Assembly (NCBI GenBank): GCA_016839585.1
Contig: JAEOTZ010000090.1
Coordinates: forward strand, 1 to 34,350
DNA: 34,350 bases
Reading direction: 5' to 3'
Origin: Promethearchaeota archaeon
Lineage (GTDB): Archaea > Asgardarchaeota > Lokiarchaeia > Sigyniarchaeales > SOKP01
Shown: one piece after another, positions 12,256 to 27,530 of the stretch
How positions within the stretch are numbered: position 1 is the stretch's first letter
Layout: every line of letters starts with the position of its first letter
The notes under the pieces: generated by a model
What the model was told of the DNA's origin: nothing
The model's input: the letters and a program-made list of their open reading frames with translations, nothing else
The model's database searches: none
Translations under genes and position numbers: made by a program

Positions 12256-13026
12256 ATGAAGGTTAAAGGAGTAATTTTTGATTTTGGCTTTACATTATTT
12301 TATTTTGATGAACCTTCTATTGAGAAATATTTTGAATGTTTTAAGACAGGGTTAATAAGTTCTATTGACTTATTAAAAAAACATAATATATTGAAAGAAA
12401 AAATAGCAATTGAAGATTTTATCAAAATTTTTAAAAGAAAAAGAGCTTCCTCTTTTAAAAAAAGTATCAAAACAAAATCAGAAATTCCAACATCTTTAAT
12501 TTTTCAAAATGCATTAAAAATAATGGTAGAAAAAAATACAATAAACGATTTGGATGAATTGAATGATCAATTCTATGTGAAATTAGCAAACATATACCAT
12601 TCTTGTGAAGAAGATGAATGGATTCCTTTCGAAAACACAAAAGATACATTAGAGAAATTAGCCTTAAAAAATTTAAAAATCGCATTAATCTCTAATCATC
12701 CAAATCATAAAACAATTGAAAACATATTAATTAAACATGATTTATTTCGATTTTTTGATGTAATTGTTACCTCTGCTAAATTTGGAAAAAGAAAACCCGA
12801 TCCTAATATTTTTTTTCATACACTTAAAAAAATGGGTTTAGAAAGTCATGCAAATTCTATTATAATGTGTGGAGATGAATATGCTGATATTATAGGGGCT
12901 TATAGAGCAAATTTAAAAGCTATTTTATTAGATAGGAAATTTAAATTCCCTTTTGAAAAGGATATTGACGTCCCTAATTATATAAAAGTGAAGGATGTAT
13001 CAGAGATCTTAAACTTCATTGATTAA
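12256..13026 (+). CDS. HAD-superfamily hydrolase (subfamily IA)
   Basis: Motif I VIFDFGFTL, motif II LISN, motif III RKPDPNIF, motif IV CGDEYADIIGA. Confidence 0.9.
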   Translation: MKVKGVIFDFGFTLFYFDEPSIEKYFECFKTGLISSIDLLKKHNILKEKIAIEDFIKIFKRKRASSFKKSIKTKSEIPTSLIFQNALKIMVEKNTINDLDELNDQFYVKLANIYHSCEEDEWIPFENTKDTLEKLALKNLKIALISNHPNHKTIENILIKHDLFRFFDVIVTSAKFGKRKPDPNIFFHTLKKMGLESHANSIIMCGDEYADIIGAYRANLKAILLDRKFKFPFEKDIDVPNYIKVKDVSEILNFID

Positions 13027-13079
13027 AACAAAAAGCAAATATATTTGAAGAGTTAAATAAAAAATTAAAAAGTTTACTC

Positions 13080-14849
13080 TCAATCAAATAAATTCTTTAT
13101 TATCTCTTTAATTTGAGAATCGTGATATGGTATGTCAACATTATATAATTTTTTTATGTTTCTTCTTATTTTTGTTGGAGAATGTCTGTCAATCTTATGA
13201 TCGATTATATAAATTATAAAATAAGTAGAGGTTTTAAAAAAATTCAGAATTAAATTTTTTGTATGAGTATATTCTAATAAATAGCTTATTCTATCTAAAT
13301 TTGAAACTTTAACAAAATAACGTAGATGATCAATAATTTTATTCATACTTATATCAATACAATTCTCTAATAAAACATTAAAGATGAAATAGCAGACAAT
13401 TTTCTTAACATTTAAAGGTATCCTTATCCCTCCTACAACTCTATCATCGATTTTTATAGCAGAATTAAGGCTTATCCAATTTTCATAGTTTTTACCTCGA
13501 TCTTGAATTAACTTTTGGATATATTTGGATATAGTTTCTTTCTTCATCGGAGATTCACCTTTCTTTATTAAATATTCTCTGACTCCATTAAGAGTTCCTA
13601 AACTTTCAAATAAAGTCTTTAAGTATATTGCACGTCCCTTCTTATAATCCCTACGAGGTCTTTCATACCTAAGAACATCCTTAATATCCATTCCGATTTC
13701 GGCGAGTCTTTCTTGAATTAATGATTTTTTAATTGTCCATTTAAAAGGTTTTATACTCTTAAAAATAAAATTATAAACATTATTTTTCGCTTCAGTATTC
13801 GTAGAATAACCAGTATAATCAGAACCATTTTTGGTTTTACCAATATAAGTACTAATTTTCGAGAAACTGATATCTAAACATTTACATAAATTCTTAAAAT
13901 CAAGAACAAGAGGTTTCGAAGCATTGGTAAATTTAATCCCTATAGCTAAATAATTCTTCTTCTTATTCCAATTTAAATAAATAGAGCCATCTGTATCAAC
14001 AAGTCCTCTTATGCAAGCTACAGTAAGATGTTTATATATGGTTTCCCATTCATTTCGATTATTTTTAATCCAATTTAAATCTCTTTTAATCCAATAAGGA
14101 ATATCTACTTGATTTAAAACTTTATTTCCTGGTTTTATTCCCAAATTAATTAAAAAACGAATTATCTCTTTTTTATAAATTCTAATTAATGTAGTATTAT
14201 CCTCATCTCTTTCTCTAATTGTAGGTTCTATATCAAAAAATGATTTTATTAGGTCTTTAACATAATATACATAATCAGGTTCAGTAGAATTAAAAGAAAT
14301 TTCGCAGAGATAATTTCTCTTTTTTTCATCAAAAGAGATATGACCGTCACCTAAAATTATTCCAATCAACTCAGTTAAAAGGAGAACTTTCTTCCAACTT
14401 AATCCTGTCAAATGATTATTAATTTTGGTACTATTAACATTTTGAATTTTAGAATTTCTAAAGTTTTCCATTAATGTTTTAGTATTATCTAGCGGGCTTT
14501 TCGTCCTTACTTCTTTTTTATAATAACCAATTTCTTTTATCAATTGATACCTTTTTATTATTTTTATCATATAAGTTTCTAAATTATTATTTCCACCTAT
14601 TTCTATGGGTTTATATTTTCCATTTCTTATTATATCTTCACTCTCTTCTGAATTAATATTAATTTTCTTAATTATTAGTTCGCTTATTAAGAAAAGTATT
14701 GAAATTAGAGAAAATATGTAAATTAGGAATTTATTTACTAAATCTACTTTAGTATAAATAAATATAGTTAAAGCCCCGAAGAAAAGTATTAGAAATGCGA
14801 TTCCTTTTCTTAAATTACCATTAATTTTTATCATATTTATTATTTTCAA
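13080..14849 (-). CDS. Free-standing two-motif LAGLIDADG (DOD-type) endonuclease-like protein with N-terminal TM segments and a long C-terminal extension
   Basis: ELIGIILGDGHI and CIRGLVDTDGSI about 120 aa apart, PGNK, IPYWI, IKFTNASKPLV; two hydrophobic helices in the first 60 aa; no intein splicing blocks. An ATG start at 14834 is possible. Confidence 0.85.
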   Translation of the reverse strand: MKIINMIKINGNLRKGIAFLILFFGALTIFIYTKVDLVNKFLIYIFSLISILFLISELIIKKININSEESEDIIRNGKYKPIEIGGNNNLETYMIKIIKRYQLIKEIGYYKKEVRTKSPLDNTKTLMENFRNSKIQNVNSTKINNHLTGLSWKKVLLLTELIGIILGDGHISFDEKKRNYLCEISFNSTEPDYVYYVKDLIKSFFDIEPTIRERDEDNTTLIRIYKKEIIRFLINLGIKPGNKVLNQVDIPYWIKRDLNWIKNNRNEWETIYKHLTVACIRGLVDTDGSIYLNWNKKKNYLAIGIKFTNASKPLVLDFKNLCKCLDISFSKISTYIGKTKNGSDYTGYSTNTEAKNNVYNFIFKSIKPFKWTIKKSLIQERLAEIGMDIKDVLRYERPRRDYKKGRAIYLKTLFESLGTLNGVREYLIKKGESPMKKETISKYIQKLIQDRGKNYENWISLNSAIKIDDRVVGGIRIPLNVKKIVCYFIFNVLLENCIDISMNKIIDHLRYFVKVSNLDRISYLLEYTHTKNLILNFFKTSTYFIIYIIDHKIDRHSPTKIRRNIKKLYNVDIPYHDSQIKEIIKNLFD

Positions 14850-14976
14850 ATTAGTTATGAGTATTAATAACTATTTAAAAAAGATCTATTTAAATAAAAA
14901 AAATAAAAACCAAATTGAAATTAAAAAATACATCTTTGATTGATTTATATAAATATTAAGAAACAATGAGAAAATA

Positions 14977-15100
14977 TAGCCCAGAGGGGATTTGTTCCAT
15001 CTAAAAGTATTTTTTTAGAAGATTGAACCCCTGATCACTGGCTTTTTGCCAATAAATCAAGTCCGCAAGCCAGCGTCCTATCCAACTAGACCACTGGGCT
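14977..15100 (-). tRNA. tRNA-Arg(GCG) with two introns: 37/38 (15044-15062, 19 nt) and 58/59 (14992-15022, 31 nt)
   Basis: Reverse complement folds with acceptor AGCCCAG/CTGGGCT-A, anticodon stem CTGGC/GCCAG with loop TT-GCG-G^A, and T arm AGGGG-TTCAA^AT-CCCCT. 74 nt after splicing; CCA not encoded. BHB central helices TTGC/GCAA and GTTC/GAAC. Confidence 0.93.
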
Positions 15101-15189
15101 ATTTGATATTTAATAATTTAACGTGAATAATAGTTAAAATATTTTGTTTCTCTATAATACTTACTTAATTATCCGTTAAAGTTAATACT

Positions 15190-15859: not shown

Positions 15860-16975
15860 TCATTCAATAAGTATAACATTTTTCTGACACTTTTCTTTTA
15901 TTACTAACTTCCCGATATTTACTACTCTTAATGCTAAATCAGAAATCTTCCATTTTTCATAACCCTTTACATAAGTAGAAAAAGTATCTTGTAGAGGATC
16001 TTTCCATTTTGAAGGAATTTTATCTACACCTAATTGAGCACCAAGAATCGCCCCAATATTTCCACAATTACAATCAGTATCGTATCCCATCATAGCAGAA
16101 ATGCAAATAGATTTACCCAGTGGATCTTTTCCATCTTCAGCACCATATAAAAGAGATAAAATTATAATCCCGATATTGGGTAGAACATGTACTTCTGATT
16201 CTTTTCCCTTTAATATACTTGATCTTTCTGTTTCTGAAGGTGGCTCTTTATCAACTAGTTCTTTTTTTATCTTTGCCCAATGTTCATTAATTAAAACATC
16301 TCTAGCTTTTCTAAAATCTTTTGGATTTTGCTCATATATTGTAATTGCTTCTTTTATAGTGTGGGTATAATGACTTTCTGTTTCATTGGGTAAAAAAGAT
16401 AGAGATTTGTCTATATTTTTCCGTATGTCTTTTTCAAAAAATGCATTAGAAATTAGTTCAGCAACATAGACCTCCCCTTCAATCCCAATACCAGAATGGG
16501 AAATTGTTCCATCCAATTCAGCATAATATTTGGCTATTTCTGGACATCCTGGCGTGATCTGACCCCAAAGATCCGCTCGCATTTGAGCTCCAATAAAATC
16601 ATAATAAGGGTTATTATAAATTCCAGATTGTGGGGGGAAAATCTTTGCCTTTAGATTATTTAATGCTACTTTTTCTGCAGTAAATACAGCTCGTTCAAAT
16701 TTTAAAAGATTTAACCACTCTAAAGCAATATCTTTTGCAGTAAGATCTAACCCATACTTTTCTAAAGCAATAAGAGCAATGATCTCATACATTTCATCGT
16801 CATTCACATAGTTTAAATTAATTTTCTTAGGGTAGTATGTGATTTCACCATATCTACGTTTAATATAATTAACATCTCTTAATTCTACTGGTGCACCCAC
16901 AAAATCTCCTGCAACACGTCCTATCCAAGATCCAAATACTTTATTATAGTACTCGTCCATCAAGATTTCTTTCAT
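15860..16975 (-). CDS. ADP-ribosylglycohydrolase family protein
   Basis: GDFVGAPVE, NDDEMY, GAQMRAD, TISH, GYDTDCNCGNIGAILGA metal-binding motifs. Confidence 0.9.
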   Translation of the reverse strand: MKEILMDEYYNKVFGSWIGRVAGDFVGAPVELRDVNYIKRRYGEITYYPKKINLNYVNDDEMYEIIALIALEKYGLDLTAKDIALEWLNLLKFERAVFTAEKVALNNLKAKIFPPQSGIYNNPYYDFIGAQMRADLWGQITPGCPEIAKYYAELDGTISHSGIGIEGEVYVAELISNAFFEKDIRKNIDKSLSFLPNETESHYTHTIKEAITIYEQNPKDFRKARDVLINEHWAKIKKELVDKEPPSETERSSILKGKESEVHVLPNIGIIILSLLYGAEDGKDPLGKSICISAMMGYDTDCNCGNIGAILGAQLGVDKIPSKWKDPLQDTFSTYVKGYEKWKISDLALRVVNIGKLVIKEKCQKNVILIE

Positions 16976-27397: not shown

Positions 27398-27530
27398 TGG
27401 GAGAGGGGGGATTTGTTCGGAATGCCCGAAACGGGAAATTCGTTGAACCCCCGACCACTCGGCTTCTGAAAACTCAGCAAATGCAGAGATTACCCCAGCC
27501 GAGTATCATACCAATCTAGACTACCCTCCC
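27398..27530 (-). tRNA. tRNA-Pro(GGG) with two introns: 37/38 (27464-27492, 29 nt) and 58/59 (27413-27442, 30 nt)
   Basis: Reverse complement gives acceptor GGGAGGG/CTCTCCC-A, anticodon stem CTCGG/CCGAG with loop CT-GGG-G^G, and T arm GGGGG-TTCAA^AT-CCCCC. 74 nt spliced; BHB helices CTGG/TCAG and GTTC/GAAC. Confidence 0.93.

Follow-up and report, generated by a model that had tools for sequence, protein, structure and literature searches.

Here, we report that a 34,350-nucleotide stretch of a Promethearchaeota archaeon genome (contig JAEOTZ010000090.1; the whole stretch is called the window below) carries a free-standing LAGLIDADG endonuclease gene which is intact and mobile and which is linked to a tRNA allele with introns. 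The gene is a minus-strand open reading frame (ORF) of 589 codons from a TTG, exactly at positions 13080 to 14849. Together with a promoter-bearing spacer, an intron-bearing tRNA-Arg(GCG) allele that we call H (14977 to 15100, minus strand), and short flanks, it makes up a mobile cassette of ~2.15 kb (13024 to 15173, minus strand) that fills the gap between two convergent/divergent HAD-hydrolase genes, HAD1 and HAD2. We consider it probable that the homing-type endonuclease gene and the H allele form a selfish cassette, which co-converts the linked tRNA allele; the cleavage activity, the target, and homing as the mechanism of transfer are what we infer from the comparative evidence laid out below.

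Filled and empty tRNA-Arg sites

The tRNA-Arg(GCG) gene lies directly upstream of the ORF on the same strand, with 127 nt separating the tRNA 3' end and the ORF. The acceptor stem of the H allele reads AGCCCAG/CTGGGCT, and the gene is interrupted by a 19-nt intron at 37/38 (15044-15062, minus strand) and by a ~31-nt intron in the T-loop (14992-15022, minus strand). ARAGORN and Rfam at its gathering threshold missed this two-intron tRNA-Arg in the window, as did Rfam at E up to 0.1; if both introns are removed in silico, the resulting 74-nt sequence is called tRNA-Arg(gcg) by ARAGORN. Multi-intron tRNAs were therefore a matter of exon BLAST and a stem-matching scanner in our analysis, the scanner having a false-hit rate of ~0.9 per 100 kb on shuffled sequence. 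The tRNA-Arg(GCG) at 14977-15100 is the sole gene of its kind in the 99%-complete source genome (G000), and about one in five detectable tRNAs of that genome has a T-loop insert.

The first line of evidence for mobility comes from the comparison of G000 with G063 (metagenome-assembled genome, MAG, Promethearchaeota 9R3_44). The segment 13024-15173 differs between the two by 10 mismatches in 2150 bp (99.5% identity), whereas the mismatch density rises to 5-9% directly outside both cassette ends; the low-divergence tract ends at the end of HAD1 on one side and just before the HAD2 promoter on the other. The synonymous divergence (dS) of the endonuclease gene is 0.0087, in contrast to 0.10-0.35 for six flanking genes (GluRS, the metallo-beta-lactamase-fold protein, both HAD genes, the 176-aa protein, and the NTP-transferase). 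Because of these two contrasts, in mismatches and in dS, we conclude from the sequence comparison that the cassette, including its tRNA allele, recently moved between two species. The ratio of nonsynonymous to synonymous divergence (dN/dS) of the endonuclease is 0.26-0.48 across close and distant pairs, which indicates that the protein is under purifying selection. As a separate observation, the nearby ADP-ribosylglycohydrolase gene (15860-16975) looks like a recombination or replacement tract of its own: its G000 and G063 versions share only 69% identity at the protein level and 64-80% at the DNA level, as opposed to ~93% for the genes on either side.

The second line of evidence is the presence and absence of the gene at one and the same site. 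The locus was fetched from 14 congeners with the conserved 176-aa neighbour as the anchor. In G032, G029, and G074, whose flanks are as similar as those of the filled sites (80-94% identity in protein), the site is empty and reads HAD1, 35 nt, intron-less tRNA-Arg(GCG), HAD2; the tRNA-Arg of these empty sites is another allele, R, with an acceptor stem different from that of H. Five further genomes (G013, G009, G006, G022, and G003) are also without the endonuclease gene, and their R alleles carry introns at varied positions. The full-length gene is found in G000 and G063, on the metagenome contigs L015/L016, and at L014, L017, L164, and L165, and every full-length site carries an H allele (acceptor AGCCCAG, T-loop intron). 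All seven loci with a full-length nuclease gene share the T-loop intron, which recurs in a displaced R remnant at L017. We read L017 as an insertion scar: an intact H tRNA is followed by a helix-turn-helix (HTH) gene, the LAGLIDADG gene, and then a 5'-truncated R tRNA adjoining HAD1. The remnant starts in the D-loop, and its anticodon arm is uninterrupted. In G024, a 241-aa core-only copy occupies the same position.

Several other arrangements were seen in this gap. Four nuclease-free genomes (L054, L058, L059, and L060) have R alleles of tRNA-Arg(GCG) with differing ~25-30-nt inserts in the D-loop/D-arm, located about where the L017 remnant is truncated. At L056 (G005:C26:15000-27000), the gap between the HAD genes is several kb long and contains tRNA-Arg copies of both types (R and H), a histidine kinase, and a duplicate of the 3' part of HAD1; the gene beside it encodes a NosD/beta-helix protein of 989 aa that has a TIR domain at its C-terminus. 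At L057:3431-4102 (G071), the place of the endonuclease gene is taken by a 223-aa radical-SAM gene, next to an H-type tRNA-Arg whose T-loop has an intron.

An integrase-type tRNA-integrating element was considered for the cassette and rejected: the LAGLIDADG gene is the only ORF of at least 100 aa within 13024-15173, and no tyrosine or serine recombinase gene is present there.

Family distribution and tRNA neighbours

Word-indexed and exhaustive searches returned ~1000 LAGLIDADG relatives, of which only the ~30 from certain metagenomes and Promethearchaeota MAGs are close; a pattern scan of genome contigs with the closer alignment gave mostly generic LAGLIDADG domains of DPANN and candidate phyla radiation (CPR) organisms. 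Any family match was found in 21 of 54 congeners, and none in the 24 genomes that represent other genera within the same order or class. In a maximum-likelihood tree of the cores, the Arg-locus copies form one clade (support 100/100) and the copies located between a tRNA-Thr and a CAT-anticodon tRNA form another (100/99). Of ~16 independent free-standing loci, at least eight have a tRNA gene 5-300 nt away, while none of the ~11 intein-like hits adjoins a tRNA gene. An earlier interpretation, made from the letters of the window without database searches (the sequence-only reading), had suggested looking for recurrent tRNA adjacency among homologs, and this recurrence is indeed found.

At the second locus, a 263-aa core-only copy lies antisense between tRNA-Thr(GGT) and the CAT-anticodon tRNA in G013, G061, and G068, with its stop codon abutting the tRNA-Thr 3' end (L004/L069/L070). 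The nuclease-free state of this locus is known as well: more than 10 other genomes (including L148, L150, L156, L159, and L161) have the same pair of tRNAs with just 14-80 nt between them. Decaying copies also exist: L078 and L084/L090 are split or stop-ridden. Faithfulness to sites, a sporadic distribution, horizontal spread, and degeneration are, taken together, what classically marks a homing endonuclease gene. Two of the degenerate copies have locations of their own. L078 (G070:C411:1-1931) is in three pieces with stops between the 3' end of a 16S rRNA gene and a tRNA, in an rRNA operon spacer. The source genome has a second, degenerate LAGLIDADG ORF of 244 aa (G000:C20:17486-18407; L002/L086), whose core match begins after motif 1 and which lies ~10 nt from a ~190-nt multi-intron tRNA.

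The distribution could also be read with the nuclease as passive cargo, i.e., the gene would reside in a variable islet by the tRNA-Arg, general homologous recombination would move it, and the tRNAs would be mere anchors, the nuclease not driving the spread. The mosaic identity between G000 and G063, the radical-SAM gene (G071) or the histidine kinase with the duplicated HAD1 end (G005) in the same gap, and the existence of H-type tRNAs without the nuclease all fit such a scenario. However, the endonuclease lineages are locus-specific, relatives adjoin different tRNA genes far above chance, the catalytic residues are kept under purifying selection, and the low-divergence tract coincides exactly with the cassette; we thus regard passive carriage as unlikely.

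Domains of the predicted endonuclease

The sequence-only reading had described one ORF with two hydrophobic helices, a two-motif core with its acidic residues retained, and a helical tail, and our reanalysis agrees with it on the position of the ORF and on each of these parts. An in-frame ATG five codons after the TTG (14834) is the called start of P0002, an ortholog 92% identical, and because of this the true protein may be 584 aa long. A putative TATA-like box, TTTTAAATA, was read from the sequence ~23 nt upstream of the TTG (14872-14880, minus strand).

The gene is free-standing, as the sequence-only reading also held when it saw neither intein blocks nor a host gene. An intein was rejected: Pfam and NCBIfam comparisons of the protein gave no match to a Hint/intein domain (the NCBIfam RtcB-intein match covers the endonuclease part only, at 21.7 bits versus a cutoff of 1150), the ORF is flanked by the tRNA and a convergent HAD gene with no in-frame host protein, and it has its own start and stop. 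An intron-encoded ORF of the I-DmoI type was rejected likewise, the ORF being outside the tRNA, downstream of its 3' end, and the tRNA introns measuring 19 and ~31 nt.

Residues 150-387 (13689-14402, minus strand) constitute a single-chain two-motif LAGLIDADG core. Motif 1, LGDG (D168; 14343-14354, minus strand), and motif 2, DTDG (D287; 13986-13997, minus strand), are invariant in 12 full-length relatives, and in the set of 32 family sequences at least 90% retain them. Pfam LAGLIDADG_3 (PF14528) matches with an E value of 9e-14 (51.9 bits versus a cutoff of 22.5); among PDB sequences, the whole protein had no meaningful counterpart by phmmer or profile search. Briefly, an AlphaFold2 model was built with the 32-sequence alignment. 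Its core has a predicted local distance difference test (pLDDT) score of ~90-96 and the helix/strand order expected for the tandem alpha-beta-beta-alpha-beta-beta-alpha fold, and Foldseek matched it with probability 1.00 to 2dch, 1dq3, 1p8k, and 2vs8, the best matches being I-Tsp061I (2dch, E 4e-8), intein endonucleases, and I-DmoI. Based on this modeling, the ORF probably encodes a single-chain LAGLIDADG homing-type endonuclease, for which site-specific cleavage would be expected.

Residues 388-589 (13083-13688, minus strand) form an all-helical C-terminal domain which is specific to the family and which is predicted to fold confidently on its own (pLDDT 92.7), and the core with this ~200-aa tail is a conserved family architecture. 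The tail has no match in Pfam or PDB sequences by profile searches and no convincing match by Foldseek against the PDB (best E 0.7) or by shape search in the ESM Atlas (TM score at most 0.36); a region-restricted search found it in LAGLIDADG proteins only. A wide VIA-align search gave Z values of at most 6.5, all within the range of common helical arrangements: residues 403-453, in the first sub-domain, weakly match a winged HTH of the LysR type (Z ~6), and the last ~60 residues weakly resemble winged-helix/LOTUS folds. The first sub-domain thus resembles an HTH, and the sequence-only reading had likewise noticed HTH-like segments in the tail. Most likely, the C-terminal domain adds DNA contacts.

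A LAGLIDADG scaffold followed by a C-terminal HTH recalls WhiA, and residues 403-453 align with the WhiA HTH (8dy9_I) with a Z of 4.6 and a root mean square deviation of 2.0 Å over 47 residues, which is again in the common-helix range. The protein might thus be a domesticated, membrane-anchored DNA-binding protein, i.e., a regulator or a chromosome-membrane tether as the sequence-only reading had offered, and a single-copy gene under purifying selection would suit this role. WhiA, however, has lost its catalytic residues and is vertically conserved, whereas in the present family both catalytic acidic residues persist throughout, and the gene is mobile and occurs sporadically: it is absent from most congeners, including the three close relatives with an intact empty site, it was recently transferred with the tRNA, its relatives are decaying, and the transmembrane part is dispensable in relatives. 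Domestication therefore seems distinctly improbable to us.

The N-terminal region was examined by Kyte-Doolittle hydropathy in 19-residue windows. Two transmembrane helices are predicted, helix 1 at residues 17-35 (14745-14801, minus strand; peak 2.18; hydrophobic also in P0002, P0003, and P0005) and helix 2 at residues 42-60 (14670-14726, minus strand; peak 2.57). Lys/Arg residues precede helix 1 and follow helix 2, consistent with a hairpin with both ends inside and the remainder of the protein in the cytoplasm. A poorly conserved linker follows (residues 61-149; 14403-14669, minus strand; pLDDT 36-69). The dN/dS is 0.30 over residues 1-93, a value resting on only eight changes, and 0.71 over residues 94-149.

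The hydrophobic hairpin is kept in orthologs at 92%, 56%, and 45% identity. What stands at the N-terminus varies across the family: the hairpin is seen in the window protein and in P0002, P0003, and P0005, a Lys/Glu-rich extension in P0006 and P0008, a CxxC...CxxC segment in P0010, and no extension at all in P0013 and P0016; the N-terminal extensions of ten relatives matched no Pfam domain. In the core tree the hairpin is confined to part of one locus-specific clade. In L164 (P0004; L164:2250-2450), the stretch coding for the hairpin is intact but closed by an in-frame TAA, so that a membrane mini-ORF of 46 codons precedes a soluble endonuclease ORF of 505 aa, which is called from the next Met. 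We take the predicted hairpin to be real and maintained in some lineages, since diverged orthologs keep it and its dN/dS is 0.30 on few changes, yet a dispensable accessory, because in L164 it is cut off by a stop; insertion into the membrane would be its presumable fate. A chance read-through, which the sequence-only reading would have recognized from homologs all starting internally, is not what the orthologs look like, as P0002, P0003, and P0005 keep the transmembrane region in frame. The combination of transmembrane region and LAGLIDADG domain, suggested there as a conserved architecture, holds for four proteins of one sub-clade but not family-wide. We found no precedent for a naturally membrane-anchored LAGLIDADG enzyme in the literature searched.

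A nuclease predicted to face the cytoplasm on a membrane hairpin, together with a patchy distribution, could also suggest a membrane-tethered defence nuclease which cuts incoming foreign DNA, another proposal of the sequence-only reading. PADLOC, however, returned 0 families and PHROGs no match, the neighbours are without defence genes (the window neighbours are HAD hydrolases, an ADP-ribosylglycohydrolase, a metallo-beta-lactamase-fold protein, and GluRS, i.e., housekeeping genes), and this lineage keeps to a single tRNA locus. The long, specific sites that LAGLIDADG enzymes recognise suit homing better than broad defence. The defence, tether, and regulator readings are all unlikely, and for a role in defence we see hardly any chance.

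A homing model and its known counterparts

If the cassette is a homing system, the enzyme would cut nuclease-less genomes which carry the intron-less R allele of the tRNA-Arg, 35 nt from the HAD gene, and the cut would be located in or beside that tRNA gene. The break would be repaired from a cassette-bearing copy, and the nuclease gene and the linked H allele would thereby be copied in. The H allele itself would be uncuttable: its acceptor and T stems differ, and introns are present, most consistently in the T-loop. The T-loop intron at the seven loci and in the L017 remnant is compatible with a putative target in the T arm. Because this tRNA is the sole gene for its isoacceptor, the target would remain conserved and the cassette would be hard to lose. 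Through the hairpin, the enzyme would be tethered on the cytoplasmic side of the membrane, which might limit self-damage or bring the nuclease close to DNA that enters the cell. The 37/38 intron was considered as an immunity feature and rejected, as it is absent from the H tRNA of L165 and the anticodon arm of the L017 remnant is uninterrupted.

It is fair to say that several observations weigh against this model. G005 and G071 have H-type tRNAs without the nuclease, the full-length gene of L165 adjoins an H tRNA without the 37/38 intron, the short copy of G024 adjoins an intron-less tRNA, and at the tRNA-Thr/CAT-tRNA locus the intron content does not track the nuclease; intron-based immunity, as in collaborative homing, is thus inconsistently supported here, and the consistency of the T-loop intron may simply reflect shared ancestry. 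The alignment of G000 and G063 is mosaic overall, with bins from 64% to 99%, and therefore ordinary homologous recombination could have moved the cassette with no help from the nuclease. Half of the family loci showed no tRNA, the detection of multi-intron tRNAs being heuristic. A membrane anchor is also hard to square with a nuclease that needs to reach a chromosomal site.

Among known systems, I-Tsp061I and I-DmoI (encoded in archaeal rRNA bulge-helix-bulge introns) and the intein endonuclease PI-PfuI have the same two-motif single-chain core with catalytic acidic residues. They are, however, without the ~150-aa N-terminal extension (with the predicted transmembrane hairpin) and the ~200-aa C-terminal domain of the present protein, whose gene resides in neither an intron nor an intein and has no sequence-level match to solved structures. 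The nearest functional analogue is SegB of phage T4, a free-standing GIY-YIG homing endonuclease in a tRNA gene cluster, whose activity leads to preferred inheritance of its own gene and the neighbouring tRNA region (PMC2330249). In both cases a free-standing nuclease gene is situated among tRNA genes, and the inheritance pattern of SegB matches the co-transfer of nuclease and tRNA allele described here; SegB differs in being a GIY-YIG rather than a LAGLIDADG enzyme, in its phage rather than archaeal chromosomal setting, and in that its activity is proven.

Collaborative or trans homing has been described for F-CphI, a free-standing nuclease encoded next to the intron-containing psbA gene in cyanophage S-PM2 (PMC6083498), and for mobE/I-TevIII (PMC2790892). 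There, as here, a nuclease gene outside the intron adjoins an intron-bearing gene, and the intron-less allele is presumed to be the target and the intron-bearing allele to be protected; those introns are group I introns in phage protein genes, in contrast to the short tRNA introns of the splicing-endonuclease type here. Integrase-mediated insertion into archaeal tRNA genes, and the model of intron gain proposed for Caldiarchaeum tRNA-Thr (PMC3293823), also yield an intact tRNA on one side of the insert and a displaced, incomplete tRNA copy on the opposite side, as at L017 here, with the intron-bearing part brought in by the element; the present cassette differs in having no integrase.

A preprint on Asgard tRNA introns states the route of intron arrival as open. 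The locus described here is a concrete, datable case of such an arrival, with relatives that have an intron-less tRNA-Arg on one side and a near-identical cassette in two species on the other. The cassette delivers a two-intron tRNA allele with an intact endonuclease gene, and replacement of a whole allele by a linked nuclease is directly testable. New in this case are the dated inter-species transfer with clean empty sites, the C-terminal domain, and the transmembrane hairpin; the range of LAGLIDADG proteins is widened by a conserved new helical, DNA-binding-like domain and by a predicted membrane anchor in one clade. Nucleases with long tRNA-gene targets might also find use as tools.

A broader conjecture, which we put forward tentatively and expect to fail sooner than to hold, is that free-standing LAGLIDADG cassettes are one way in which tRNA alleles with introns reach Asgard archaea and spread among them. 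The nuclease would cut intron-less or foreign alleles, introns (in the T-loop here) would break the recognition site, D- and T-loop introns of nuclease-free genomes would be resistance alleles of an arms race, and the hairpin would restrict the nuclease to DNA that comes in at the membrane or via cell-cell contact.

One more tRNA-like gene was seen in the window at 27398-27530 (minus strand). It was detected by the stem-matching scanner only, ARAGORN and Rfam (gathering threshold) having missed it, and was earlier labeled tRNA-Pro(GGG); it has an acceptor of GGGAGGG/CTCTCCC and a ~30-nt T-loop insert.

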